A stretch of 64,000 nt of DNA from Pirellulales bacterium. GTDB lineage: Bacteria; Planctomycetota; Planctomycetia; Pirellulales; JAICIG01. The DNA lies in the NCBI GenBank assembly GCA_035252155.1, contig DATFDL010000776.1, positions 1,392-65,391 on the forward strand, read 5' to 3'. Under the pieces are notes generated by a model. It had not been told where the DNA came from. It was given only the letters and a program-made list of their open reading frames with translations, and ran no database searches. Each line of letters starts with the position of its first letter. Position 1 is the stretch's first letter. Both the position numbers and the translations under genes were made by a program. Below, one piece after another: positions 913 to 18,237 of the stretch.

Positions 913-964
913 GTCGCCTTTCGCTCCGCGAAAGTAGCGCTGCTTTCGCGGAGCGAAAGAAGAC
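913..964. repeat. Palindromic REP-like doublet (class D: GTCGCCTTTCGCTCCGCGAA)
   Basis: CTTTCGCTCCGCGAAAG-TAGCGCTG-CTTTCGCGGAGCGAAAG inverted pair between two genes. The 20-nt left unit recurs exactly at 21562 and 45451. Confidence 0.7.
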
Positions 965-965
965 A

Positions 966-2192
966 TTATTCGATCCGAAAAAACTCTCCGAGGCTCGCGT
1001 CGCCGGTGTCGAACGTTCGCACCTTGGTCAGCCAGGCACGGCGGCGCGGGTCGCGCCAGATCTCGCCGAACCGTCGCTGGTCGTTCAAGTATACCGGGTG
1101 CGTCGAGACCACCACCACCTGGGTGCCCCGCCGAATGCGGTCGAGCACGTTCGACAGGGTGCTCTGCAGGTCGTCGCGCGAGGCCGGCTCGCTCAGCGCG
1201 AGCCGCCGCATGACTTCGTGCAGCATGGCTGTCGACGTCGGTCCGCTTTCGAGCCACGGCTCGCGGCCGTTTGCGGCCACATAGAGCCATCGCCCGCCGC
1301 CGCGGCAGAGATCGGCCACGACCGTGGCCACGAAACTGACGGCCAGCTCAACCGCGTCGGCCTGGTCGGGCCGGGGCTGATCGGGTTGCCACAGGTCGAG
1401 CACCACGGCCAGGTCTTGATGCCGCTGCTGCTCGAACTGCCGAACCACGGGCGTCTGGCGGCGGGCGCTGGTGCGCCAGTGCAGCCAGCGGCGGCTGTCG
1501 CCGCTGCGCCAGTCGCGCAGCCCATAGAATTCGCCCTCATGCAAACCCTGCCGCCGCGAGGTTTTGCCCGAACCCGCCTCGGCCGCTTGCTCCAACCGCT
1601 TCCAGCCGTGCAGCAGCCGGCCCACCCGCGGAAACACAATCAGCGAGTCGTATTGATCGGTGATCATGCGATAGTGAAACAGTCCCAGTGGAAACCGAGC
1701 CGAGACTTGCAAGGGACCGAAGCGGTAACGGCCGCGTTCGACCAGCCGCCCGCGGTAGCTGGCGGTCCGCGATTGCCCTGCCGGCAGATAAGAAACGAGC
1801 GTTTGGGCCAGCAGCGGCGATCGCCGCCGGCCGCTCGACTCGCGCACGATGCGGTCGGTGATCTCCAACGCCCAGCTCGGCAAGCGGCGGCGGCGATTGA
1901 CCGCCGTGAACTCGACCACCAGCAGGTCGCCGGCCGAGATCGAATCGGGCAAGCGACGCCGCACTTCGATTTTGCGCAGCATCTTTTTGACGATCCGCCA
2001 GCACATCACCATCGCCCCGGCGAGCATGCCGAACAAGATCATTAGCAGGTTGATCTGCCGCGTGATCGCTCCGGCCAAAATAAAGGCGGCGATGCCCAGA
2101 TAGCACCAGCCCTCGAAGGTGAGCGAGATGCGATAGCGCGTCCGCGGCGCCGATCGGGCGGACGAGCGAACAGATAACCGGCGCAGCAGCAT
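966..2192 (-). CDS. DUF58 domain protein (MoxR-associated, vWA-like)
   Basis: 408 aa with N-terminal TM helices and the DUF58 signature region YGLRDWRSGDSRRWLHWRTSARRQTPVVRQFE. Same strand as the MoxR gene. Confidence 0.8.
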   Translation of the reverse strand: MLLRRLSVRSSARSAPRTRYRISLTFEGWCYLGIAAFILAGAITRQINLLMILFGMLAGAMVMCWRIVKKMLRKIEVRRRLPDSISAGDLLVVEFTAVNRRRRLPSWALEITDRIVRESSGRRRSPLLAQTLVSYLPAGQSRTASYRGRLVERGRYRFGPLQVSARFPLGLFHYRMITDQYDSLIVFPRVGRLLHGWKRLEQAAEAGSGKTSRRQGLHEGEFYGLRDWRSGDSRRWLHWRTSARRQTPVVRQFEQQRHQDLAVVLDLWQPDQPRPDQADAVELAVSFVATVVADLCRGGGRWLYVAANGREPWLESGPTSTAMLHEVMRRLALSEPASRDDLQSTLSNVLDRIRRGTQVVVVSTHPVYLNDQRRFGEIWRDPRRRAWLTKVRTFDTGDASLGEFFRIE

Positions 2193-2292
2193 GAGAGGCG
2201 TTCGCCAGGCCCGAGAGGTGTATAGCGGTTACTCGTATTGTAGGCCGGCATACGAGTGCGATGTCAAGGGCCTAGAGGGGAGCGTTATGCGG

Positions 2293-2755
2293 TCAGAGTT
2301 GGTCTGCCATATCACGCAGTTTTGCGACTGTCTTTGAGAGAGACTGTTTCTCGAGCGAATCAAGGAACTCGTCTACTGATTTCCGCGGCTTCTTCAAGTT
2401 CGCGCGCTGCCGCCTGGCTGCCGTACATACTAAATCTGGCGCGGACTGGAGTAGCTTCACGATAAAGTCGTCTGGGTGATCGGCCCTGATCTGATACGTG
2501 TCCAAGGTTTCCGCCGGGAAGTCCCGTAAGTCAAACGTTACGATAATATCCGCATTGCAGGTGACGGCCGCTGCTAAAACATGGCGGTCGTCCGGATGGA
2601 CGAGCGGCCAGCAGGTTGCTGATCCACTCTTCATGAATCCGTTCCGTCCACTTGGCGCGAAACAGGCCCGTTAGCGCCAGATGCATCAGGAGATCGCGAA
2701 GCGGGGCTGGGTAGAGAACGCAGGCGTCGTAAATCGCGATAAACTGGGCCCCCGT
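2293..2755 (-). pseudogene. Decayed PIN-domain toxin (internal deletion plus frameshift)
   Basis: Track ORF 2293..2634 holds the C-terminal PIN half (HPDDRHVLAAAVTCNADIIVTFDLRDFP). My translation of 2755..2640 in another frame gives the N-terminal half (FIAIYDACVLYPAPLRDLLMHLALTGLFRAKWTERIHEEWISNLLAARP). About 45 residues normally lie between the halves and are missing here. No canonical start codon precedes the N-terminal half. Confidence 0.6.
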
Positions 2756-2938
2756 TCAATAGCCCATATCCAGTTCTTGAGCCTGGGCAGCCAATTCTTC
2801 GAGGGCCTTCAGGCGCTCCCGATTTTTTTCATCGGTCTCGCCTGGCAAGGGAACGATCGTCACTTGCGTCCCTTCCGGCAGCGCCGCACCATTGATGAAG
2901 ACAACGACGCCGTCTTGTACCTTGCCTTGATAAGTCAT
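2756..2938 (-). CDS. Small antitoxin-like protein (DUF104/AF2212-like)
   Basis: 60 aa, MTYQGKVQDGVVVFINGAALPEGTQVTIVPL..., matching the short xGVxx...LPEGTxVxI antitoxin pattern. Its stop abuts the PIN remnant. Confidence 0.5.
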   Translation of the reverse strand: MTYQGKVQDGVVVFINGAALPEGTQVTIVPLPGETDEKNRERLKALEELAAQAQELDMGY

Positions 2939-3006
2939 CGTGGTAAGCCTCTCTCCAAGTCGGCACTCTCAGCTTTATTTTAATGCCACTGGTCGCATTG
3001 CGGCAA

Positions 3007-3951
3007 CTAGGCCGGCACGGGCAGGTCGTCAACCAGTCGCTGGATGAGGGCCTCGACGGCGCCGCGCTGGCTGCCGTGTAGATAACCCTTGGTGATGACG
3101 CGGTGGGCCAACACCGGCACCGCCAATCGCTTGACGTCGTCGGGCACCACGTAGTCGCGGCCCTCGATCAACGCCAGCGACTGGCACGCGCGGTATAAGC
3201 ACAACGCCCCGCGCGTGCTCGCCCCCACGTGCAGCTCGTCGCAGTTGCGCGTCGCTTCGACGATATCGAGCAAATAATCGTGAATCGACTCGTCGACGCT
3301 GATCTGACGCACCGCCTGTTGCAGGTTCGACACCTGAGTGCAGTCGAGCACGGGAGTCAATTCATCGACCGGCTCGCCCTGACGATGAATCGTCAACACC
3401 TGCAGCTCGTCCTCGCGATCGGGATAGCCCACGCTGATCCGCAGCAAAAACCGGTCGAGTTGGCTTTCGGGCAAGGGATACGTGCCTTCGAACTCAAATG
3501 GGTTCTGCGTGGCGATCACCAGAAACGGCCGGGGCAAATGATGCGTAGTGCCATCGATCGAAACCTGGCTGTCGCTCATGGCTTCCAGCAGGGCGCTTTG
3601 GGTGCGCGGGGTGGTGCGATTGATCTCATCGGCCAGCACGATATTGGCGAAGATCGGGCCGGGGCTGAAATAAAACTCGGCCGTCTTGGCGTTAAAGACG
3701 CTGCTGCCCACGATGTCGCTGGGCAGCAGGTCGGGCGTGAACTGAATGCGGCAAAATTTGGCGGCGATGCTTCTGGCCAGGGCCTTGCCAATCAGCGTTT
3801 TGCCCACGCCCGGCACGTCTTCGAGCAAGATATGCTCGCCCGCCAAGAGGGCCACCATGCAGAGCCGAACGACGCCGGGCTTGCCGAGCACCACTTTGGC
3901 CATGTTGGCCTCCAGTTCGCCGACCAGGCTCTGGAGTTCCGCGGTCATCAA
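3007..3951 (-). CDS. MoxR-family AAA+ ATPase
   Basis: 314 aa with Walker A LLEDVPGVGKT and Walker B IVLADEINR, followed by TPRTQSALLEAM and the typical MoxR C-terminal region. Confidence 0.9.
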   Translation of the reverse strand: MMTAELQSLVGELEANMAKVVLGKPGVVRLCMVALLAGEHILLEDVPGVGKTLIGKALARSIAAKFCRIQFTPDLLPSDIVGSSVFNAKTAEFYFSPGPIFANIVLADEINRTTPRTQSALLEAMSDSQVSIDGTTHHLPRPFLVIATQNPFEFEGTYPLPESQLDRFLLRISVGYPDREDELQVLTIHRQGEPVDELTPVLDCTQVSNLQQAVRQISVDESIHDYLLDIVEATRNCDELHVGASTRGALCLYRACQSLALIEGRDYVVPDDVKRLAVPVLAHRVITKGYLHGSQRGAVEALIQRLVDDLPVPA

Positions 3952-4035: not shown

Positions 4036-4677
4036 CTATGGTTCGCTCAGCCAGGTCCGCCGGCCGTCGGCACGCAGACGCCCCGAGGCGATCCAACGCA
4101 GGGCCTCGGGATAGGCCGCGCACTCGGCTGCGAACACACGGGCGGCCAGCGTTTCGGCCGTGTCGCCGTCGAGCACCGGCACCGGACGCTGCAGCAAGAT
4201 CGGCCCGTGGTCGTATTGGTTGTCGACAAAATGCACGGTGCAGCCGCTGACTTTCGCCCCGTAATCGAGCACGGCTTGGTGAACGTGCGGCCCGAAAAAA
4301 CCCTGCCCGCAAAAGGCCGGAATCAACGCTGGGTGAATGTTGACGACGCGCCACTCAAAGTCGGGCGGAATGGGCACGAACTTGAGAAAGCCGCCCATCA
4401 CGACGATGTCGGGGTTTGCCAGCCGGCAGGCCTCGAAAACCGCCTGGCCAAAGCCCGCGTCGTCGGCATGGTCCCGCCGCTGGATCACGCGGGTGGTGAT
4501 GCCGGCCGCATGCGCGTGCTCCAGACCGCTCGCCGATGGATTGCTGGAAATGACCAGCTCGATGCGAGCGTCGAGCCGGCCCGCGGCCATCTGGTCGAGC
4601 AGGTTGCGCAGCGTCGTGCCGCCGCCCGAAATCAGCACCACCAGCCTCAGCGGCGAACGCCGCGGAAAGTCGAGCAT
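4036..4677 (-). CDS. purN: Phosphoribosylglycinamide formyltransferase
   Basis: Motifs LVVLISGGGTTLRNL, NIHPALIP and GCTVHFVDNQYDHGPI. Start trimmed to MLDF (ATG 4677..4675), which overlaps the upstream stop as TGATG. Confidence 0.85.
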   Translation of the reverse strand: MLDFPRRSPLRLVVLISGGGTTLRNLLDQMAAGRLDARIELVISSNPSASGLEHAHAAGITTRVIQRRDHADDAGFGQAVFEACRLANPDIVVMGGFLKFVPIPPDFEWRVVNIHPALIPAFCGQGFFGPHVHQAVLDYGAKVSGCTVHFVDNQYDHGPILLQRPVPVLDGDTAETLAARVFAAECAAYPEALRWIASGRLRADGRRTWLSEP

Positions 4678-5930
4678 CACGTGCCACTCGCTCGCACGTC
4701 GTAGCAGAACAGCTTGTCTTGATCGCGCAAATAGAGCCGCCCGTCGGCCACCACCGGGTGGGGCCAAGCCGCGCGATCGCTGCGCTGCGGCTGTTCGAAC
4801 CGCCCCGCCAACTCAAACTGCTCGGGCGTGGCCCGCACCAGGCTCACCAGGCCCTGCTCGCTCCGGCAATAGAGCATGCCGTCGGCGTAGACCAGCGAGC
4901 ACTTGCCGCAACTGCGCTCGCGCCATTTGACCTCGCCGCTGGCGAAGTCGAGACAGGTGAGCACGCCCGGATCGTCGCAGCCATACAGATAGCCATCGAC
5001 CAGCACGAGCCCGCCGTGATGGTTTTTCATCTCCTTGGTGAAATAGGCCTGCTCGGCGTCGAATTTCCGGCCTTTCTTTTTCAATCGCACCAGGCCGCCA
5101 CCGGCGCCGTAGCCCGACGCGGCAAAGACGCTGTCGTCGCTGAAGACAGGCGTGGCGACGTTGGCGGTGCCATTGGCCGGCGCGTCGTAGCGCCACAGCA
5201 GTTGGCCGTTTTTGCCACTCACGCCAATCACGCCTTGCTTGGTGAACTGCACATATTGTTTGACGCCGCCGGCCTCGATGGCGATGATCGACGAGTAATC
5301 GGCGGTGTCGCCGATTTTCGATTGCCACGCCCGCTTGCCGTTGGTTTTGTTCAAGGCCAACACTGTGGCCGCTTGTCCGCCGGGCGTGCAGAGCACCCAA
5401 GGGCCATCGACCAACACCGATTCGGAATAGCCCCAGCCGCCCACCTGCCCGTCGAAGTCGGCCACCAGGTCGTGCCGCCAGATGGGCTTGCCTCGCTCGG
5501 CATCGAGACAGACCAGGTCGCCGGCCAGGCCGAGGGCGTAGACTCGGTTGCCATCGACCGTCGGCGTGCTGCGCGGGCCGGGGTAGCCGCCACCTTGGTG
5601 CCGCACGTCGCCCACCACCGCGAGCCAGGCGGCATCGCCCTGCGCGGTGCGGTCGAGCGCGAGCACCAACTCCTTGCCATCGCGGTTGCCCATCACATAA
5701 ATAAGATCTCCGACCACGCTAGGGGTCGAAAAACCCTCGCCCAAGCCGGTGGCGGTCCAGAGCAGTTGGGGACCGCCGTCGGGCCACGTGGCGAGCAGCC
5801 CGGTTTCGGCCGAGCGGCCGTTGCGCTGTGGACCGCGCCAGCCGGGCCAATCGTGGGAGCTTTCGCCCGCACTGGCTGAAGCGACAATGAATATGCAGAG
5901 CAGAATGAAACCGGAGGCGAGGCGAGGCAT
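4677..5930 (-). CDS. Secreted PQQ-like beta-propeller repeat protein (BamB-like fold)
   Basis: Signal peptide MPRLASGFILLCIFIVASASA, then DWPGWRGPQRNGRS and repeated propeller blades. Start trimmed to ATG at 5930. Confidence 0.8.
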   Translation of the reverse strand: MPRLASGFILLCIFIVASASAGESSHDWPGWRGPQRNGRSAETGLLATWPDGGPQLLWTATGLGEGFSTPSVVGDLIYVMGNRDGKELVLALDRTAQGDAAWLAVVGDVRHQGGGYPGPRSTPTVDGNRVYALGLAGDLVCLDAERGKPIWRHDLVADFDGQVGGWGYSESVLVDGPWVLCTPGGQAATVLALNKTNGKRAWQSKIGDTADYSSIIAIEAGGVKQYVQFTKQGVIGVSGKNGQLLWRYDAPANGTANVATPVFSDDSVFAASGYGAGGGLVRLKKKGRKFDAEQAYFTKEMKNHHGGLVLVDGYLYGCDDPGVLTCLDFASGEVKWRERSCGKCSLVYADGMLYCRSEQGLVSLVRATPEQFELAGRFEQPQRSDRAAWPHPVVADGRLYLRDQDKLFCYDVRASGT

Positions 5931-6557: not shown

Positions 6558-6690
6558 AGGGTTCAAACAAGGGTTCAGGGTTCAGGGTTCAGAACTTTCG
6601 TTCAGGGCATGCCGGTCGGTGCTAACCATGAACGTCCGCACAAAAATGCTGAACCCTGAACCCTGAACCCTCCGCGAACCCTGAACCCTT
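6558..6690. repeat. Heptamer-armed palindromic element, copy 1: (GGGTTCA)n - core - (TGAACCC)n
   Basis: AAGGGTTCAAACAAGGGTTCAGGGTTCAGGGTTCAG, a 56-nt core, then CTGAACCCTGAACCCTGAACCCTCCGCGAACCCTGAACCC. It starts right after the stop of the upstream gene and ends 19 nt before the trpD ATG. Confidence 0.85.
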
Positions 6691-7701: not shown

Positions 7702-7711
7702 GGGCTCGCCG

Positions 7712-7838
7712 AGGGTTCAGGGTTCAGGGTTCAGGGTTCAGTACTTTGTTCCACCATTTATGGTCGGCGCCGACCACCAAGCCGTGAACGAAAGTTCTGA
7801 ACCCTGAACCCTGAACCCTCGCGTCCCCATGAACCCTT
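7712..7838. repeat. Heptamer-armed palindromic element, copy 2 (core inverted relative to copy 1)
   Basis: GAGGGTTCAGGGTTCAGGGTTCAGGGTTCAG, core, then CTGAACCCTGAACCCTGAACCCTC..CATGAACCC. The reverse complement of the core aligns to the copy 1 core (AACTTTCGTTCA...GGTCGG...ACAAA), roughly two thirds identical by eye. Confidence 0.85.
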
Positions 7839-7914
7839 CCGTTGCTTGACGACGGCCGCGCTCTAGCCGACAATCGCCAAGAACAAGCTTTAGCACCGTT
7901 TGGACCACGAATCT

Positions 7915-9486
7915 ATGGAATTCAAAGAAGGCCATACCGTCGGCATCGACCTGGGAACCACGTTTTCGGCCATCGCCAAGCTCGACGAGAACGGCGCGCC
8001 GGTGGCCCTGCTCAATGAAGAAGAGGAAGTCGAAACGCCCAGCCTGATCGTACTGGCGCAGAGCGGGCATGTGATTGTCGGCCCCAGCCGCACGCGGGCC
8101 GCCATGGAAGACCCAGAGCACGTCGTCGAGCGCGTCAAGCGCCACATGGGCAGCGCTGAATACAAGCGCACCTTCGACGGCCATGAGATCACGCCCGAAT
8201 TTCTCTCGGCCCTGATCCTGAAGAAGCTGCGGCAAGACGCCGAAAAACGGATCGGCCCCATCGGCAATGCCGTAATCACCGTGCCGTATTATTTCAACGA
8301 CGCCCGACGCAAGGCCACGCAAGACGCCGGCCGCATTTCGGGCATGAACGTGATCGACATCATCAATGAGCCGACCGCCGCCACGCTCACCTACGCTTGG
8401 CACCGGGGCGAGCTGGGGGTGGGCAAGTTCGAGAAGCCGCACATGGCGTTGGTCTACGACCTGGGCGGCGGCACGTTCGACGTGACCGTGGTCAAGTACA
8501 CGCCGACGCACTTTCAGGTGCTGGCCACCGACGGCGACGTGTATCTGGGCGGCATCGATTGGAACGATCGCTTGCTCAACTATGTAGCCGACGAATTCAA
8601 GAAGCGGCACGGGTCCGACCCGCGCGATTCGGCCGCCACCACCCAGGTGCTGCGCAACGATTGCGACCAGGCCAAGATCGCGCTCTCGAATCAGCCACAG
8701 GCTTCGATTGTCTGCCGGCATGAGGGAAAGAGCGCCTCGGTCACCGTCACGCGCGAGCAGTTCGAGCAGATGACCGCCGACCTGCTGCAACGCACGATCG
8801 ACACCACCGAATTGGTGATCGAACAGGCCAAGATTCAACCGCAAGACCTCGACGCGATCGTGCTGGTGGGCGGCTCGACGCTGATGCCCCGCGTGCCGCT
8901 GCTGCTGGAACAAGTGACGGGCAAAAAACCGTTCCAAGAGCTATCGCCGCACACGGCGGTGGCCCAGGGCGCCGCCATCCACGCGGCCATTCTCGAAGCT
9001 AAGTTTCGCGGCACCGGCAGCGAGTTGGCCGACACCGTGCGGCGCTATCTGAAAAACGTCAAGCAGGACGACGTCAATTCGCACAGCCTCGGCGTAGTGA
9101 TTAAAGATCCGCAAACCAAGAAACCGCGCAACCACGTGATGATCCCCCGCAACACGCGGCTGCCGGTCGAAAAGCAGCAGGTGTTCAACACCATCGAGCC
9201 CAACCAGGTGCGGGCCACCGTCCGAGTGATCGAAGGCGATGCGCCCGATCCGGCGGCCTGCTCGCTGATCGGCAATTGCAGCATCACGAACTTACCGGCA
9301 AGCTTACCCAAGGGATCGCCGGTCGAAGTGACGTATTCCTACGGCACCGATGGCCGGGTGCGCGTGCGGGCCCGCGACAAGACGGGCGGGCGCGAGGCCG
9401 CCATCGAGATCGAACGTCGCGGCGGGCTAAACGAGCAGCAGATCGACGGATACGCCAATTTGGCCCAGCAATACGTGGTGCAGTGA
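7915..9486 (+). CDS. Atypical Hsp70-family protein lacking the C-terminal helical lid
   Basis: Motifs GIDLGTTFSAIA, LVYDLGGGTFDVTVV and LVGGSTLMPRVP, plus a beta-sandwich SBD-like region. The protein ends about 523 aa in. The ATG at 7915 is preferred over the TTG at 7900. Confidence 0.85.
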   Translation: MEFKEGHTVGIDLGTTFSAIAKLDENGAPVALLNEEEEVETPSLIVLAQSGHVIVGPSRTRAAMEDPEHVVERVKRHMGSAEYKRTFDGHEITPEFLSALILKKLRQDAEKRIGPIGNAVITVPYYFNDARRKATQDAGRISGMNVIDIINEPTAATLTYAWHRGELGVGKFEKPHMALVYDLGGGTFDVTVVKYTPTHFQVLATDGDVYLGGIDWNDRLLNYVADEFKKRHGSDPRDSAATTQVLRNDCDQAKIALSNQPQASIVCRHEGKSASVTVTREQFEQMTADLLQRTIDTTELVIEQAKIQPQDLDAIVLVGGSTLMPRVPLLLEQVTGKKPFQELSPHTAVAQGAAIHAAILEAKFRGTGSELADTVRRYLKNVKQDDVNSHSLGVVIKDPQTKKPRNHVMIPRNTRLPVEKQQVFNTIEPNQVRATVRVIEGDAPDPAACSLIGNCSITNLPASLPKGSPVEVTYSYGTDGRVRVRARDKTGGREAAIEIERRGGLNEQQIDGYANLAQQYVVQ

Positions 9487-10514
9487 GCGCGCAACCCGAC
9501 GTCTACCGCGATTGGCTGGAGATCAGCGAGACGGCGCGTCCGCTGAACCACTACCAGCTCTTGAAACTGAAGCTGTTCGAGGACGACGCCAACGTCATCC
9601 GCGGCAGCTACCGCAAGTTGAACGCGCACGTGCGTAAATACGCCGCCGGCGAATTCGGCCCACGCTCGCAGGAGCTGCTCAATGAGCTCTGCCAGGCGAT
9701 GCTTTGCCTGACCGACGCGGTGCGCAAGGCCGAATACGACGCCTCACTGGGGCGGGCGGCGGCGCCCGTGGCCGGCAAGGCCAAAAACTTCGAGGAGCTG
9801 CTGGTGGCTCGCAAGGTGCTTACCTCGGAACAGCTCGACAAGGCGAGGCGGTTTTCGCGGACAATCGGCGTGGAGGTGCGCGACGCTATATTCCAGCAGC
9901 GGCTGGCGCCGGCCGACCAGGTGATGCAGGTCTACGCCGACTCGATCGGCCTGCCGTTCATCAACCTGGAGGACGTCGACATCGACGAAGGGCTGGTACC
10001 CAAGATGCCCGCCGTGACCGCCCGGCAGCAGTCGTGTGTTCCGTTGATGGCAGTCGACGGCCGGGTATTGGTGATGGCGCCTCATCTGTTGCCGCCCGAG
10101 ATCGAAGACCTGCTGCGGCTGCGGTTTGGCGTGCCGGTGCGGATGGTGCTCTGCACGCCGGCCGATGTCAACCAGGTGATCGCCAAGCATTTTCCCAAGG
10201 AAGCGGCGGCGGCCGAAATGGCGGCCGGGCCGGCCAAACGGGCGGCGAAGGCCACGCCAGAGACGAAGGAAAAAGCGGCGGCGCAGCCCGCAGCCCAGGC
10301 GGACCTGACCTACGAAGAAAAGAAACAGGCCAAGAAACAGCGACTGATTAATTGCTTTTTGGTGGCCAACATTTGCGTGATCGTTTTCATGATCGGGCTG
10401 GGAACTGCCACGCAGTACCTGGTAAGGCACCCGTGGCTAAGTACGCTGGTGGGCATCGTCTTTTGGGCAGGCGTATTCGGCGCCACTTGGGTCGTCACCG
10501 AGCTGAAGAAGTGA
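9483..10514 (+). CDS. Membrane-anchored J-like (HPD-less) protein with T2SS-E N-terminal (MshEN-type) domain
   Basis: GTG at 9483 overlaps the Hsp70 stop (GTGA). The N-terminus aligns to J-domain helices (YQLLKL..IRGSYRKLNAHVRKY..LCLTDAVRKAEYDASLG), with HVR in place of HPD. The middle part reads LLVARKVLTSEQLDKARRF..IGLPFINLEDVDIDEGLVPKMP..VPLMAVDGRVLVMAP, which is T2SSE_N-like. There are two C-terminal TM helices. Confidence 0.6.
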   Translation: MSAQPDVYRDWLEISETARPLNHYQLLKLKLFEDDANVIRGSYRKLNAHVRKYAAGEFGPRSQELLNELCQAMLCLTDAVRKAEYDASLGRAAAPVAGKAKNFEELLVARKVLTSEQLDKARRFSRTIGVEVRDAIFQQRLAPADQVMQVYADSIGLPFINLEDVDIDEGLVPKMPAVTARQQSCVPLMAVDGRVLVMAPHLLPPEIEDLLRLRFGVPVRMVLCTPADVNQVIAKHFPKEAAAAEMAAGPAKRAAKATPETKEKAAAQPAAQADLTYEEKKQAKKQRLINCFLVANICVIVFMIGLGTATQYLVRHPWLSTLVGIVFWAGVFGATWVVTELKK

Positions 10515-10542: not shown

Positions 10543-10645
10543 CTGTAGGGTGGGCCGAGCGAAGCGAATCCCACCGTTGCCTCATCATGAAGCATCAGCG
10601 TGGCGCAAGCGAAAGGTGGGGCTCGCAAGCTCGTCCCACCCTACG
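10543..10645. repeat. REPIN-like doublet (class E: GTAGGGTGGG..CCCACC)
   Basis: CTGTAGGGTGGGCCGAGCGAAGCGAATCCCACC ... GGTGGGGCTCGCAAGCTCGTCCCACCCTACG. Each arm is a GTAG head plus a hairpin. The element sits between convergent genes, and the right arm contains the stop of the receiver gene. Confidence 0.75.
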
Positions 10646-11021
10646 CCTGTTCTCGCAAGAACCTGGCCAGCTTTTCGTGCGTGCCGGGGTCGTCGAGCTG
10701 GGCCTTGCCAAAGCCTGGTTCGGCTCCCGCGGCAATCGCCTTCTGTTGATGCTCGGCAAAATTGGTGACGAGCATCACCGGCATGGACGACAACTGAGGA
10801 TCTGTCTTCATGGCCTTGATGATCGCCAAGCCATCGTCGCCATCGGCGTCGAGCTTGCGATTGACCAGCACCAGGTCGAAGTTGCCATTGCGCAAAGCCG
10901 TCAGCGCGTCGTCACGTTGATGCGCTCGCACCACACGGGCGCCGAATTGGCCTTCGACCAACCGGCGAATGGAACCGTGGTCGAGATTGCACTGGCCGAC
11001 GTCGAGAACCAGTTTGGGCAT
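10641..11021 (-). CDS. Stand-alone receiver-like domain protein with Asn at the phospho-acceptor position
   Basis: 126 aa from ATG 11021. CheY-like pattern KLVLDVGQ..FDLVLVNRKLDADGDDG..PVMLVTN..GFGKA. By alignment to the DLVLLD consensus, the D57-equivalent reads N. Confidence 0.65.
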   Translation of the reverse strand: MPKLVLDVGQCNLDHGSIRRLVEGQFGARVVRAHQRDDALTALRNGNFDLVLVNRKLDADGDDGLAIIKAMKTDPQLSSMPVMLVTNFAEHQQKAIAAGAEPGFGKAQLDDPGTHEKLARFLREQA

Positions 11022-11251: not shown

Positions 11252-13183
11252 CTATCGGCCGACTAGGGTTTCATCCGATGTTTCGGCTGCGGCTTGCTCT
11301 CCGGTATCCATCGGCACGATCGCAAACAGGTGCGACTTGTTCGAGACGTACAACACATTATTGGCCACCACAGGCGTGCTGTAGACCGAGTTGCCCATGT
11401 CGATCTGGTGCAGCGGCTGATGCTCGCCGTTGTCGTCTTTCTTCATCGCCACGTCCGGATCGGACGAGAGGCCGAAGATCGACAGCTTGCCTTCTGCGTC
11501 GCCGACATACACCTTGTCGCCGACGATCATGGCCGAGCCCCAGTTTTCGGCGAACAGGTCGTGCGTCCAATAGACCTTGCCATTCTTGGCGTCGACGCAG
11601 TGAAACAAGCCGCTGAAGTCGGGAATAAACAGCAGCCCGTCTTTGATGGCCACGGTGCCACAGGTGCGGTGCATTTTTTCTTCGAAGTCGGCGATGTCGC
11701 CGTCGCCGTTCACGTCGTATTCGGTGTAGTGCCATACCGCGGCTGAATTGGGATTGTCGATCGCCACTTCGCCGTCTTCTTCGATCACGGCTTGCAGCCG
11801 CCGCTTGGGCAGCACGTGCTTGCGGTCGTCGACCTTTACCGCCAACTCGCTGCTGACGTCGCCGCGCTTGGTGGGATCGATGCACCAGAGATGCCCGTTG
11901 CCCTCGCCGTGCTCAGGGTCTTCGCCCACCGCGATATAGACCAGATTTTCATAGATCACCGGCGTGCCGATGATGTGGTTCCGCGTGCTGCGGCCTTGGA
12001 CGCTATATTTGGCGGTTTTCGGATTGCAGTCGAACTCCCAGAGCAGTTCGGGCTTGCCGTCGTCGGTGGCTTCGCCGCGGAAGCTGCGCAACCAGCCGTC
12101 GCCGCCGCCGAAGAGCACTTGCGGCACGCCGTCGATCACCGCGTAAGCGGGCGACGACCATTGGCCGTGCAAGATGTTCTCGCCCGGCGAGTTATCTTGC
12201 CAGAGCACCTTGCCGGTGTTTTTGTCGAGGCAGAGAAAGCTGGGGGCCTCTGGCGAAGGGATTTCCGTGTGTCCTTCGTCGACGCCGTTCGAGGTGTTGA
12301 CAAACAGCAGGTCGCCGGCCGACGTGACCGAGCAACTGCACATATTGTGCTGCGAGACCTTCAACTGGCGCATCATGTCGAGATACCAGATGACGTCGGC
12401 CTCGTCTTTGTTGGTGCTCTGCTCGGCCTGAAACGGTCCGTCGTTCTCGTCGTCCAAAAACCCTTCGGTGTCGAGGCAGGCGACTTCGCCGCGGCTGGTG
12501 ACGAACCACAGCCGGTCGCCCTCGACCAGCGGCGCACAGCAGATGCCTTGCAACGGCCAATCGTGTACCCGGCCGGTGGGCAGCTTTTCGCTCGAATGCT
12601 GCCAGAGAAAATGCCCATCGGCTTCGTCGAAGCAGAGCAAACAGCCCAGGTCGACATCGGCCGGGTAACGCTTCAGATAACCGGCGCCGTTATTGGTGCC
12701 GACAAACACCTTGCCGTCGGCCACCACGGGGTTGCCGTAGCTTTGGCTGCCCAATCGCGCGACCCATTTGATGTTATGCGAGGTCTCACTCTGCCACTCG
12801 CTGGTGTCGCTGATTTCGCCAGGCGACCACTCGGTGGGAATATTCTTGCCCACCGGCACATTGTTGCGAATCGGCGAGCCGCCCCATTGGTTCCACTCGC
12901 GGTTCGGCTCGGCAGTTTCGTCATCCGCGGGTTTGCTCGCGGTATGAGCCGCCTGCTGGCCGGCGGCTTCCGACGCGACGTCGTTCTCTGCGGCGGCATC
13001 GTTGGCTACGCTGCTATCGTCGGCTGGCGCGGAGTCGTTGTCCGTCGCCTTGGACGCGACCACGTGGGCGTCGGTGCTATTCGCCGTAGTGTTTTGGGCC
13101 GTCGGCGGCGTCGATTTCGAGCAACCTATTTCTAGGGTGGCCAAGAGAACGACTGGCAGAACAAGAGCAAGATACTTTTTCAT
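11252..13183 (-). CDS. PQQ-like beta-propeller repeat protein, probable secreted or lipid-anchored
   Basis: MKKYLALVLPVVLLATLEIGCSKS signal, an acidic low-complexity linker, then WNQWGGSPIRNN and propeller blades. Start trimmed to ATG 13183. Confidence 0.8.
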   Translation of the reverse strand: MKKYLALVLPVVLLATLEIGCSKSTPPTAQNTTANSTDAHVVASKATDNDSAPADDSSVANDAAAENDVASEAAGQQAAHTASKPADDETAEPNREWNQWGGSPIRNNVPVGKNIPTEWSPGEISDTSEWQSETSHNIKWVARLGSQSYGNPVVADGKVFVGTNNGAGYLKRYPADVDLGCLLCFDEADGHFLWQHSSEKLPTGRVHDWPLQGICCAPLVEGDRLWFVTSRGEVACLDTEGFLDDENDGPFQAEQSTNKDEADVIWYLDMMRQLKVSQHNMCSCSVTSAGDLLFVNTSNGVDEGHTEIPSPEAPSFLCLDKNTGKVLWQDNSPGENILHGQWSSPAYAVIDGVPQVLFGGGDGWLRSFRGEATDDGKPELLWEFDCNPKTAKYSVQGRSTRNHIIGTPVIYENLVYIAVGEDPEHGEGNGHLWCIDPTKRGDVSSELAVKVDDRKHVLPKRRLQAVIEEDGEVAIDNPNSAAVWHYTEYDVNGDGDIADFEEKMHRTCGTVAIKDGLLFIPDFSGLFHCVDAKNGKVYWTHDLFAENWGSAMIVGDKVYVGDAEGKLSIFGLSSDPDVAMKKDDNGEHQPLHQIDMGNSVYSTPVVANNVLYVSNKSHLFAIVPMDTGEQAAAETSDETLVGR

Positions 13184-13216
13184 GTTGACTTTTGCACTTT
13201 GCATTTTGACTTTCCC

Positions 13217-15808
13217 CTACCGGTTCTCCGTAACCGAAAGATTATCGATAAAAATCTCGGCATCGTCGGCCTTGCCAAAGAGGCCGGGGCTGCCGATGAC
13301 GTTGGGCGCCTCGTCGACCGCCTCGATCGACCAATCTTCTGGCTCGTCGTCGCCGCGCGGCCAGACCTTGCCTCTCAGCACCGCCTTACCCTCTTCGACT
13401 GACGCCTGAAACTTCATCGTGTACCAGGTATCGTAGTTCCACTTGAACGGCACTGTCGTCGAGAAACGATTCGGCTGGCCCGTCCACGAACGAACCTGTA
13501 ACTGCTGTTTAATGCCCATGAGGACCAGCGTATATCGCTGGGCGATCAGGCCGATATCCGGCTGCTTGCCGTCGCGGATCGAGCCGCGTACGTCGGCCTG
13601 AATCGTGTAGTCGTGATAGTCCGGTTGCCCCATCCAGCACTGGCTGCGAGTGCCCAAGGGAATGGTGGTAATCTTGACCATCACACCGTTGCCTTCACTT
13701 TCCAGCTTGCCGCGCGACACGTCAAGGCCCACGTCGCCGTCTTCGCCCGTCCACTTGTAGTCGGCGATGATCCCCGCCTCGCGCACCAGCTTTAGGGCCG
13801 GCTCTAATTCTTTCTTGGCCCCGCCCAGCGTCTTGACCGACTTGCTCCCGTCAAGTTCGAGGTATCGCAAGAAGTTGGTCCACAGTCGGCGCGGGGTGCG
13901 GTCGTTGAAACTGGCCTTGTCCTGACCGGAGTTAAGAAACGTCGTCGTCAGATAGATGTAAAGTTGGCCGGCCCGCTCGTCTTGCTGCTTGAGCGATTCG
14001 AGCAGATCGAAATCGAGGGCGATGTGCCGATAGCGGGCGCCCACCCAGGTGATCGGCACCCGTTGGTTGGCAAAGTCGAATTTCCAAGGCAGCGGCGGCA
14101 CGATGCGAATGCGGGCCTTGCCCGTCAGATCGCCCACCTTGGCGGTCACCGTGCAGCCCACGTGCTCGTCTCCGCGGTCGGCGGTGAACGTTCCCTTGTC
14201 GTCGATCTTGCCGCCGCCATCGACTTCAAAGGCCACGTCGTCTGCCTTGGCCTCTTGAATGAACCGCCCGCGAGCGTCGTACAACCGCGCGGTATATTGC
14301 ACCTGCTCGCCCGGAGCGATCAGCGATTCGACCGGCACGACCTGCACGTGGGCCGGCTGCTGGTCTTCGCCAGCGGCTTCTTCCTGCGGCGGCTCGGGCC
14401 GCTGGTCGACGCCGGTCTTGGAGTCGGCATTGCCCAGGCAATAGAGCGTTTCGGTCGTGGGCAGATAAATCCGGCCATGCGAGACGATCGGCGAGCCATG
14501 TACTTCCTGGCCTTGACCGAAGCGGATCTTATCGATGATTTTCACGCCTTTTTCCGTGGGTTCGAGCACGTGCCAGCCGCTGGTGGTGCAGGCGTAAATC
14601 TTTCCGTCGGCATAGAGCAAGCTGGCTCGGGCAATGGTGCCGATGAGCCGCTGCTTGGCGATCTGCTTGCCCGTCTTGGTGTCGAACACATACAACGGCC
14701 CACCGTCATCGAGAGCGTAAAGTCGGCCATCGACCACTACCGGCGAGCTTTTGCCGATCATGATCTGTCGCTTCGACCAGATTTTGCCGCTTTTGGTGAT
14801 GTCGATGCTCTTGGCCGCGGGATCGAGATTGGCGGTGCCGTCGATGGCGCAGATGCCGCCCTGCGTGTTGTCGTTGATGTTTTCTTCGCTGTGGCTCATA
14901 TAGACGGCGTCGCCCTCAACCACCGGCGTCGTATTCAGCCCCCGCTGCGAAATATAGCAGCTCCACAGCGGCCGGCCCGTGCGCGGCTGAAAGGCCCACA
15001 CGCCGCCGTCGCCCGAGCCAAAAATCATCGCCGCTTGCCCGCCAAGCACCGTGAGCACCGGCGTGCTGTAGGTGGTATCGGTAGGCCGCAGTCGCGTGCC
15101 GTTGAACCAGCGGGGCACGCCGGTCCGCTTGTCGAACGCCACAAAGCGATGGGCGGGCTGGGCCATCTCGCCCCAGCCGATCACCACGGCGTTGATAATC
15201 ACCAGGTCTTCAAACACGACGGGCACATTGGTCCGCCCGCCGTAGGTGCTTAAAAAACCATATTCTTCGCTCAGCGAGTGCGACCAGATGGTTTCACCGG
15301 TGTCCCCGTCGAGACATTGAAAGTAATCGCACACGCCCATCGCATAGATGCGGCCCGTGGCGGGATCGCCCGTGCAGCACGACCAGCCCAGCCGCTCTTT
15401 GGGCACGTCGGAGAGAAAGACATTAAAACGGTTTTCCCAGAGGATCTCGCCGGTGTTGGCGTCGGCGCAAACCACTTTCTCTTGTTCGCGGGGAGTGCCC
15501 GGCTCGTGGCTGCAGATGGTGTAGAGCTTGCCCCGCATGACGATGGGCGTCGAGCGGCTGCCCAGGGCATCGCTTTTCCAGATAACGTTGTCGCCCTCTT
15601 TGCTCCAATGGTCGATCAGGCCGGTCTCGCGCGAGATGCCATTTTGCTCCGGCCCGCGCCAATTGGGCCAATCCAAGGGATCGATCTCCGCGGCACCTTC
15701 CGATTTATCTTGGGCCACCACCGGTCGGACCAAAGCGACAACCGGCGCCACGGCCAGCATCCAACATCCATACGGAACGAAAACCAAAGCCGCGCGAAAG
15801 AGACTCAT
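13217..15808 (-). CDS. PQQ-like beta-propeller protein with C-terminal LamG/concanavalin-like domain
   Basis: DWPNWRGPEQNGISRETG plus blades. The C-terminus DYTIQADVRG...YTLVLMG...WYTMKFQASV...AEIFIDNLSV looks jelly-roll-like. The ATG at 15808 is preferred over the TTG at 15823. Confidence 0.75.
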   Translation of the reverse strand: MSLFRAALVFVPYGCWMLAVAPVVALVRPVVAQDKSEGAAEIDPLDWPNWRGPEQNGISRETGLIDHWSKEGDNVIWKSDALGSRSTPIVMRGKLYTICSHEPGTPREQEKVVCADANTGEILWENRFNVFLSDVPKERLGWSCCTGDPATGRIYAMGVCDYFQCLDGDTGETIWSHSLSEEYGFLSTYGGRTNVPVVFEDLVIINAVVIGWGEMAQPAHRFVAFDKRTGVPRWFNGTRLRPTDTTYSTPVLTVLGGQAAMIFGSGDGGVWAFQPRTGRPLWSCYISQRGLNTTPVVEGDAVYMSHSEENINDNTQGGICAIDGTANLDPAAKSIDITKSGKIWSKRQIMIGKSSPVVVDGRLYALDDGGPLYVFDTKTGKQIAKQRLIGTIARASLLYADGKIYACTTSGWHVLEPTEKGVKIIDKIRFGQGQEVHGSPIVSHGRIYLPTTETLYCLGNADSKTGVDQRPEPPQEEAAGEDQQPAHVQVVPVESLIAPGEQVQYTARLYDARGRFIQEAKADDVAFEVDGGGKIDDKGTFTADRGDEHVGCTVTAKVGDLTGKARIRIVPPLPWKFDFANQRVPITWVGARYRHIALDFDLLESLKQQDERAGQLYIYLTTTFLNSGQDKASFNDRTPRRLWTNFLRYLELDGSKSVKTLGGAKKELEPALKLVREAGIIADYKWTGEDGDVGLDVSRGKLESEGNGVMVKITTIPLGTRSQCWMGQPDYHDYTIQADVRGSIRDGKQPDIGLIAQRYTLVLMGIKQQLQVRSWTGQPNRFSTTVPFKWNYDTWYTMKFQASVEEGKAVLRGKVWPRGDDEPEDWSIEAVDEAPNVIGSPGLFGKADDAEIFIDNLSVTENR

Positions 15809-15912
15809 AAGAGGTATTTTCAATAGGAGGCGGGACCGGCGAACCGGTTTTGGCGGGCAAAATACGTGGCTCTAGGATACGCTCCGGCCCGCCGGTTCGG
15901 CAAGCCGCCAGC

Positions 15913-18205: not shown

Positions 18206-18237
18206 CCTGAACCCTGAACCCTGAACCCTGAACCCTT
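18206..18237. repeat. Single C-rich arm (CTGAACC)x4 of the GGGTTCA family
   Basis: CCTGAACCCTGAACCCTGAACCCTGAACCCTT ends 2 nt before the ATG at 18240. Confidence 0.8.

Follow-up and report, generated by a model that had tools for sequence, protein, structure and literature searches.

In a 64,000-nucleotide stretch of a Pirellulales (Planctomycetota) contig (DATFDL010000776.1), referred to here as the window, two co-oriented genes on the forward strand encode an atypical Hsp70 and a predicted membrane-anchored protein with a J-like domain. The Hsp70 open reading frame extends from the ATG at 7915 to the TGA at 9484–9486 and specifies 523 residues, and that of the partner runs from a GTG at 9483 to 10514 and specifies 343 residues. 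The partner GTG overlaps the Hsp70 TGA as GTGA (9483..9486, forward strand), as a first-pass annotation made from the DNA letters alone had pointed out. The GTG start is supported because it falls in the same alignment column in all 120 listed homologues and was also used in an independent gene call on the identical ENA contig (L097). Translational coupling, which the first-pass annotation had read from the overlap, holds up only in part. The four-nucleotide overlap is real, but it is found only in the closest relatives (L001, L002, and L097), and intergenic gaps of 13–222 nt separate the two genes elsewhere.

The Hsp70 and its partner protein

The Pfam HSP70 profile (PF00012) matches the first protein with an E-value of 6.7e-116 over profile positions 2–517 of 599. 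Because the match ends at position 517, the α-helical lid of the substrate-binding domain (SBDα) is absent; the protein can be aligned through E. coli DnaK residue 507 and ends 18 residues past the β-sandwich. Together with the alignments to DnaK and HscC and the statistics of 120 orthologues, to which the family counts for this Hsp70 refer, the match identifies a lidless Hsp70 paralogue (7915..9486, forward strand). It consists of a nucleotide-binding domain (NBD, about residues 1–364), a family-specific insert of 15 residues before the linker (365–379, nt 9007–9051), a polar interdomain linker (380–390, nt 9052–9084), the β-subdomain of the substrate-binding domain (SBDβ, 391–505), and a C-terminal tail (506–523). 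The orthologues are 522–527 residues long with few outliers. The earlier description of a protein with the NBD motifs and a β-sandwich and without a lid was thus borne out by the Pfam match and the DnaK alignment. An assignment as a DnaK or HscA equivalog was rejected, as the scores are far under the DnaK equivalog cut-offs of NCBIfam (390.7 bits versus 648 and 378.9 bits versus 822.55; NF001413 and TIGR02350).

The catalytic residues D8, K70, E171, D194, T199, and D201 (DnaK numbering) are each kept in at least 119 of the 120 orthologues, and the peptide-pocket residues F426 and V436 in 120 and 107 of them, respectively. ATPase activity and peptide binding are therefore probably retained, judging from the conservation of these residues.

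The positions used for J-domain contact and for interdomain clamping present a different picture. In DnaK, R167 is bonded by D35 of the J-domain HPD motif and also clamps D481; Q378 is the second contact of D35; E206, D211, and E217 form the acidic patch for helix II of the J-domain; D477 is the SBDβ contact for J-domain K48; and D326 clamps with K414 (PMC8215388). The R167 position, which is D148 in the window protein (codon 8356..8358, forward strand), is occupied by D in 119 of the 120 orthologues, and the Q378 position by H in every one. Within the acidic patch, E206 is replaced by R or K, D211 is deleted or replaced by H, and E217 is replaced by Q. The D477 position carries A or S, the D326 position Q, and the D481 position mostly S, and both clamps between NBD and SBDβ (R167/D481 and D326/K414) are lost. 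The hydrophobic VLLL linker of DnaK (389–392) has become V-K-Q-D in the window protein and V-K/R-Q-E/D in the family, which also has a five-residue insert in loop L1,2 compared with DnaK.

The C-terminal tail of the family ends in the motif Y-x-V-[DE]-COOH, represented by YRVD, YLVE, and YKVE in other members and by YVVQ in the window copy (tail at 9430–9483). The motif resembles the EEVD tail used for docking in eukaryotes and is a candidate for a role in binding.

The first 91 residues of the partner (9483..9755, forward strand) comprise a DVYRDWL segment followed by four J-type helices. The Pfam DnaJ profile (PF00226) aligned over its full length (1–63) but below threshold, with an E-value of 0.033 and 14.7 bits versus a gathering score of 27.8. 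When a profile of 53 diverse J-like domains was compared with the PDB sequences, the top ~35 matches were all J-domains (best E = 2e-5). The AlphaFold2 model of the partner, with a mean predicted local distance difference test (pLDDT) value of 84.8, contains the helices of a J-fold at residues 23–26, 36–51, 59–77, and 79–88 and a loop at 52–58. A Foldseek search with the model retrieved, after structures resembling the middle domain, the J-domains of Tid1, DnaJA1, DNAJC5, and DNAJB8 with TM-scores up to 0.78 (0.71–0.78 for Tid1 and DnaJA1). By homology and by its predicted fold, the N-terminus of the partner is a J-domain, in agreement with the first-pass proposal.

This J-domain lacks the HPD tripeptide, which was found in none of 179 domain copies of the J-like family. 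Instead, the copies share the motif H-[VLI]-[RK]-x-[FY]-x-x-G. The first-pass annotation had recognized the missing HPD and had placed HVR at its position. The former observation stands, but the register does not: two independent profile alignments put R51-K52-Y53 of the partner, which lies inside the shared motif, opposite H33-P34-D35 of DnaJ, with HVR starting two residues upstream. H49-V50-R51 would represent the last turn of helix II, because helix II of the model ends at residue 51. Among the regions of the partner, the J-like domain is the best conserved, with a mean identity to the query of 77% compared with 64% for the middle domain, 34% for the linker, and 24% for the transmembrane region.

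The middle domain (residues 101–241; 9783..10205, forward strand) is of the MshEN or GspE-N type and is composed of a four-helix subdomain (101–155) and an α/β subdomain (156–241). The T2SSE_N assignment made earlier was confirmed by Pfam (PF05157, E = 2.5e-14, 53.5 bits versus a cut-off of 23.1 bits), by NCBIfam matches to the N-regions of PilB and NfrB, and by PDB sequence matches to PilF, PilB, and MshE. Foldseek gave TM-scores of 0.7–0.79 to MshE-N (5htl), PilF GSPII-B, PilB-N:PilZ, and XpsE-N, the structures matched being 5htl, 8pdk, 7lkm, and 2d28, and also a match to a chain of the EpsE-N1:EpsL complex (2bh1, TM-score 0.71).

Domains of this type can recognize cyclic di-GMP (c-di-GMP) through a pair of motifs of 24 residues each, RLGxxL(L/V/I)xxG(L/V/I/F)(L/V/I)xxxxLxxxLxxQ, with R9 and Q32 as the pivotal residues (PMC12943098, citing Wang et al. 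2016); the degenerate XpsE-N is known not to bind c-di-GMP (PMC12943098). We read the motif residues from a HMMER alignment to VcMshE across 121 family members. In the first motif, R9 is replaced by T, S, or N, G11 by E (121/121), G18 by K, and Q32 by A or S; in the second, R38 is replaced by E or D, G40 by R or H, G47 by K or R, and Q61 by S. Every R, G, G, and Q signature residue of both motifs is thus substituted in all 121 members, and the hydrophobic scaffold positions of the motifs are retained. Because the signature residues of both motifs are replaced, canonical c-di-GMP binding was rejected for the whole family. The polar residues E104, K120, R122, Q138, and Q139 are invariant in the family, which suggests a different conserved surface on the domain and may leave room for a ligand other than c-di-GMP.

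The remainder of the partner matches the earlier description of a Lys/Glu/Ala-rich linker followed by two transmembrane helices. The linker (residues 242–285; 10206..10337, forward strand) is predicted to be disordered, with pLDDT values below 50 at 254–274. Two hydrophobic helices (288–306 and 321–339; 10344..10499, forward strand) are predicted to form a C-terminal membrane hairpin; the AlphaFold2 model places helices at 277–309 and 317–341, and a hydropathy scan found two hydrophobic C-terminal segments in 83 of 121 partner homologues.

Conservation of the pair and the wider J-like family

More than 737 homologues of the partner were found, nearly all in metagenome-assembled genomes of Pirellulales and annotated as hypothetical proteins. 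In 13 of 13 related loci, the two genes lie side by side in the same orientation, whichever gene the search started from. Starting from the partner, and counting related loci that have upstream DNA, an Hsp70 gene for 523–525 residues lies directly upstream in ten loci (L001–L006, L008, L009, L010, and L011). Starting from the Hsp70 orthologues, a protein with the MshEN-like domain is encoded directly downstream in L094, L095/L096, and L097. The adjacency persists down to about 50% partner identity while the flanking genes vary. Among the intact loci, the Hsp70 (66–94% identity) is much better conserved than the partner (56–78%). In L009, the Hsp70 orthologue (4130–5861) is distributed over several reading frames and the match to the partner is interrupted as well, owing either to assembly frameshifts or to a pseudogenised copy.

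No third gene is conserved with the pair, and the flanks differ among the loci examined. A conserved upstream gene, for instance for a nucleotide-exchange factor, was considered and rejected: the small upstream proteins of L094, L095, L010, and L011 are not all homologous to each other, and the window has none. Since the adjacency is retained in all 13 loci against changing flanks, the pair constitutes a conserved and apparently dedicated module. With the predicted C-terminal transmembrane segments of the partner, the pattern supports the first-pass idea of a membrane-tethered Hsp70 module, here one of Pirellulales. Profile and fold searches recovered the J-like and T2SSE_N homologies and the two genes co-occur in the related loci, so neither of the outcomes that the annotation had named as refuting its reading was observed.

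The J-like domain extends far beyond the partner family. A search with it returned 7102 representative clusters (50% identity) at E ≤ 1e-3 and 2194 at E ≤ 1e-10. The MshEN domain was present in 44 of the best 150 matches (P0121–P0270). The general type without MshEN follows the motif FDPYHKWLGIPP..QPPNHYRLLGI...H[VLI][RK]x[FY]xxG...CLL...YD and occurs in one to five tandem copies at the extreme N-terminus. Among 77 non-MshEN proteins of at least 250 residues, the domain begins within the first 30 residues in 72; a transmembrane-like segment comes after it in 66, and 62 have a single such segment, at a median distance of 69 residues. Beyond this segment lie domains of exported types, including FGE-sulfatase, WD40, Laminin_G_3, β-helix, LRR/NPCBM, and 3-keto-disaccharide hydrolase domains. 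No Pfam model covers the HPD-less J-like domain, according to Pfam scans of family members.

The idea that J-like genes are linked to Hsp70 genes across the board was rejected. Among 80 metagenomic loci picked via the general motif (L013–L092), only L042 and L063 have an Hsp70 gene nearby, a frequency consistent with few Hsp70s serving many J-like proteins; the linkage does hold when one starts from the Hsp70 gene. The Hsp70s of these two loci are lidless or C-terminally non-canonical and carry D at position 167. A search with the L063 protein uncovered a second conserved subfamily of about 517 residues, in which 115 of 117 members have no lid and 115 of 117 have R167D, together with Q378Y, the absence of VLLL, and a C-terminus of the form GPLKL[SAG]. 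Some members of this subfamily carry C-terminal GYF_2, SHOCT, or zinc-ribbon extensions.

The second-subfamily gene lies beside or near a J-like gene in five of five loci examined. In L098 and L100 (6001–7554) it is divergently adjacent to a gene for a J-like protein with Laminin_G_3, in L099 (6001–7545) a J-like and LRR gene is located two genes downstream, in L063 (8172–9818) the J-like gene is adjacent, and in L042 (4567–6849, reverse strand) it is nearby. HPD-less J-like domains are thus associated with lidless R167D Hsp70s in two distinct Hsp70 subfamilies, and the kind of J-like partner differs between the two. Across the 0.87 Mb of the window and the fetched loci, all 19 Hsp70 genes encode D at position 167, and no canonical DnaK or DnaJ gene was found.

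The immediate surroundings of the pair in the window suggest a transcription unit of its own. Between trpD and the Hsp70 gene lies a hairpin of (GGGTTCA)n/(TGAACCC)n heptad repeats (7702..7828; about 115–127 nt), with an RNA folding energy of −76.5 kcal/mol and a z-score of −8.8 relative to shuffled sequences, which probably separates the trpD and Hsp70 transcription units. It is followed by a sigma-70-like promoter match upstream of the Hsp70 start (TTGACG-17-GACAAT; 7846..7874, forward strand), a consensus match that constitutes weak evidence. These two features led us to the suggestion of a separate unit. The same tandem heptads recur between genes at 6571–6670 and 18209–18235 of the window, with seven exact 20-mers found versus none expected by chance, and might represent a REP-like (repetitive extragenic palindromic) element or a terminator or insulator.

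Convergent on the partner gene is a gene for a receiver-only, single-domain response regulator of 126 residues (10644..11021, reverse strand; Pfam Response_reg, E = 9e-8), beyond which two large PQQ-like β-propeller proteins are encoded (11252–13204 and 13217–15823, reverse strand). This trio lies 3′ of the pair in the window (the identical contig L097), L011, and L094 and is absent downstream of the pair in L010 and L095. The response regulator is a recurrent neighbour and not a proven part of the module. Upstream of the pair, the L097 gene calls place a MoxR-type AAA ATPase and a DUF58 protein at about 959–3941 of the window (reverse strand), which form a Bat/MoxR-like cluster together with a TgpA transglutaminase beyond the window start; L095 has a similar MoxR–DUF58 cluster upstream of the pair. 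Farther away, the window contains a second atypical Hsp70-like gene that is unrelated to the lidless Hsp70 (50177–53032, reverse strand). Its 952-residue product combines an Hsp70-type NBD (Pfam HSP70, E = 6e-20, only the first ~300 profile positions) with DUF3731 (“DNA-K related protein”, E = 4e-76) at the C-terminus, and a PIG-L deacetylase gene overlaps its start. The defence-system models of PADLOC gave no match for the Hsp70 or the partner.

A possible membrane adaptor for a specialised Hsp70

The best explanation we can offer, and one we hold tentatively, is that the two genes encode a specialised Hsp70 and its own membrane adaptor as a two-gene module of Pirellulales. As its sequence and model show, the partner is predicted to sit in the cytoplasmic membrane by a C-terminal hairpin, with the J-fold devoid of HPD and the MshEN-fold devoid of the c-di-GMP motif facing the cytoplasm. 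The J-like domain would dock to its cognate Hsp70 through a co-evolved, non-canonical interface. A candidate contact, which is a guess, might be formed between the basic R51/K52 of the partner and D148 of the Hsp70 at the R167 position, replacing the HPD D35:R167 pair. Such docking could keep the Hsp70 at the membrane's inner face, insulated from the housekeeping DnaK/DnaJ system. The MshEN-like domain, by analogy with GspE-N1:GspL and PilB-N:PilZ, might serve as a protein–protein adaptor rather than a nucleotide sensor and might select the client or the machine on which the Hsp70 acts. The interface could be a rewired one that stimulates the ATPase or a purely tethering one, the latter in keeping with the first-pass view of a partner that recruits rather than stimulates. 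The two appear equally possible from the residue patterns, because the Hsp70 side has changed too (R167D, Q378H, E206R/K, and VLLL to VKQD).

Several observations weigh against this adaptor model. The basic residues R40, R44, and K45 of helix II are kept even though the Hsp70 patch that they would face is now basic or neutral, so the canonical docking geometry is not simply transferable. In L063, whose Hsp70 carries D at 167, the adjacent J-like protein nonetheless shows Q at the position of R51. Among the genes surrounding the pair in the loci examined, including L010, L011, L094, L095, and L097, none for a pilus or a secretion system was seen, and the assignment of function draws only on the adjacency of the genes and on patterns in their residues.

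This reasoning appears to extend to a much larger group of J-like domains without HPD, those at the cytoplasmic N-termini of proteins that cross the membrane once. In its widest form, which is conceivable but which we regard as unlikely, Planctomycetes would run an orthogonal Hsp70/J network, in which lidless Hsp70s with R167D, Q378H/Y, and a polar linker have co-evolved with J-folds of the H-[VLI]-[RK]-x-[FY]-x-x-G type, are insulated from DnaK/DnaJ, and use the MshEN-bearing partner as a universal membrane receptor. Such a network would act at the inner membrane face in the sorting, insertion, clustering, or extraction of the J-like membrane and exported proteins, which number in the thousands.

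We also considered that the two proteins might constitute a regulatory or signalling heterodimer rather than a chaperone. The lidless Hsp70 and the J-like protein would form a stable complex in the manner of Ssz1–Zuo1 and act as a switch on a membrane machine in the manner of Myxococcus StkA. An Hsp70 that has lost its lid, its hydrophobic linker, and both allosteric clamps is hard to reconcile with a normal substrate cycle, which speaks for this possibility, as does StkA itself, a short Hsp70-like regulator (codons 5–535 are deleted in the mutant) that acts downstream of the MshEN-bearing PilB, the partner having a PilB-type N-domain. Yet the conserved catalytic and F426/V436 pocket residues suggest that ATPase activity and peptide binding are probably kept, the partner bears no relation to the neighbours of StkA, which are the SCP2-like StkB and StkC, and pilus genes are missing from the neighbourhoods examined. 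On these grounds, we consider the heterodimer doubtful.

It is less probable still that the MshEN-like domain is the one that binds the Hsp70, its α/β subdomain resting on the actin-like NBD as GspE-N1 does on GspL, while the J-like domain serves another Hsp70 or another role. The cytoplasmic domain of GspL and the Hsp70 NBD share the ASKHA fold, and both the Foldseek match to the EpsE-N1:EpsL chain and the distinct tail of the MshEN-paired Hsp70 subfamily (Y-x-V-[DE] versus GPLKL[SAG] in the other subfamily) would agree with such an arrangement. The second Hsp70 subfamily, however, is linked to J-like proteins without an MshEN domain, so the common denominator of the association is the J-like domain, which is also the best-conserved region of the partner.

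It is very improbable that the partner is a receptor for c-di-GMP through which the Hsp70 comes under second-messenger control, as the first-pass annotation had raised. The domain is a true homologue of the MshEN fold, and the MshEN domains of MshE, PilF, and NfrB do bind c-di-GMP, but the eight VcMshE signature residues, including the pivotal R9 and Q32, are replaced in all 121 homologues, and XpsE-N provides a precedent for a degenerate non-binder. That the genes are mere neighbours without a joint function is scarcely credible. The four-nucleotide overlap is indeed not conserved beyond close relatives, but the genes stay adjacent in 13 of 13 loci, down to about 50% partner identity and amid changing flanks, and an independent Hsp70 subfamily is linked to J-like genes in five of five loci.

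J-domain control of Hsp70s has been treated as universally dependent on the HPD motif and on the contact that it makes with R167 and the hydrophobic linker (PMC8215388). Here, an Hsp70 clade and a very large family of J-folds have both abandoned these elements, yet they remain linked genetically and have retained strongly conserved signatures that differ between the two. If the proteins of the pair do still work together, they would provide a natural example of a re-coded Hsp70/J interface, which could help to explain how chaperone networks achieve specificity and insulation and could assist the design of orthogonal pairs. If the orthogonal network existed, the HPD–R167 contact would not be the sole way for a J-fold to engage an Hsp70. 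The association also offers a first functional context for thousands of unannotated planctomycete membrane proteins and indicates that the MshEN fold has been reused outside secretion ATPases without its c-di-GMP site.

Comparison with known systems

E. coli HscC with DjlC/DjlB, of which the first-pass annotation had cited HscC and DjlC for comparison, offers a similar arrangement, in which a specialised Hsp70 is encoded beside a dedicated J-type partner with an N-terminal J-domain and a C-terminal transmembrane anchor. The window Hsp70 shares with HscC the deletion of DnaK residues 76–106, a four-residue deletion in the 207–214 loop, and the insertion in loop L1,2 (PMC8215388). It is not an HscC orthologue, however, being closer to DnaK (38.8% identity) than to HscC (31.8%), and HscC (556 residues) retains R167, the hydrophobic linker VILTD, and a shortened lid. 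In the DjlC sequence compared, the J-domain reads HPE and is not accompanied by an MshEN domain, whereas the window partner has no HP motif at all.

In Myxococcus xanthus, StkA is likewise a short Hsp70-like protein that is not induced by heat shock and is genetically downstream of the MshEN-bearing PilB. It differs in having StkB and StkC as neighbours and no described J-like partner, and its likeness to the window Hsp70 is by description. The N-domains of MshE, PilF, PilB, XpsE, and NfrB have the same two-subdomain fold as the middle domain of the partner (TM-scores 0.7–0.79), and XpsE-N shares with the partner family a degenerate c-di-GMP motif. Unlike all of them, the partner domain is joined neither to an ATPase of secretion or pilus systems nor to a glycosyltransferase.

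Yeast Ssz1–Zuo1, the ribosome-associated complex, unites an atypical Hsp70 that has a truncated substrate-binding domain with a J-protein in a permanent pair. Ssz1 has been cited as a “regulatory Hsp70” (PMC4319316). The likeness to the window pair rests on the Hsp70 and J folds, by description; unlike the partner, Zuo1 has a normal HPD in its J-domain and acts on another Hsp70, Ssb, and the complex is bound to the ribosome and not to a membrane. Mitochondrial Pam16 (Tim16) has a J-fold without HPD and works at a membrane alongside an Hsp70. Pam16, however, pairs with the true J-protein Pam18 and regulates a canonical, lidded mitochondrial Hsp70, whereas the window type has an altered Hsp70, and no partner with HPD appeared in its loci.

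Literature searches on the domain fusion, on lidless bacterial Hsp70s, and on planctomycete DnaK paralogues yielded nothing relevant. Undescribed in the literature searched are the fusion of these domains, the loss of canonical elements in concert by both proteins, and the size of an HPD-less family with its own conserved motif. HPD-less J-like proteins, as exemplified by Pam16, and atypical lidless Hsp70s, as exemplified by Ssz1, are kinds of protein that are already known.

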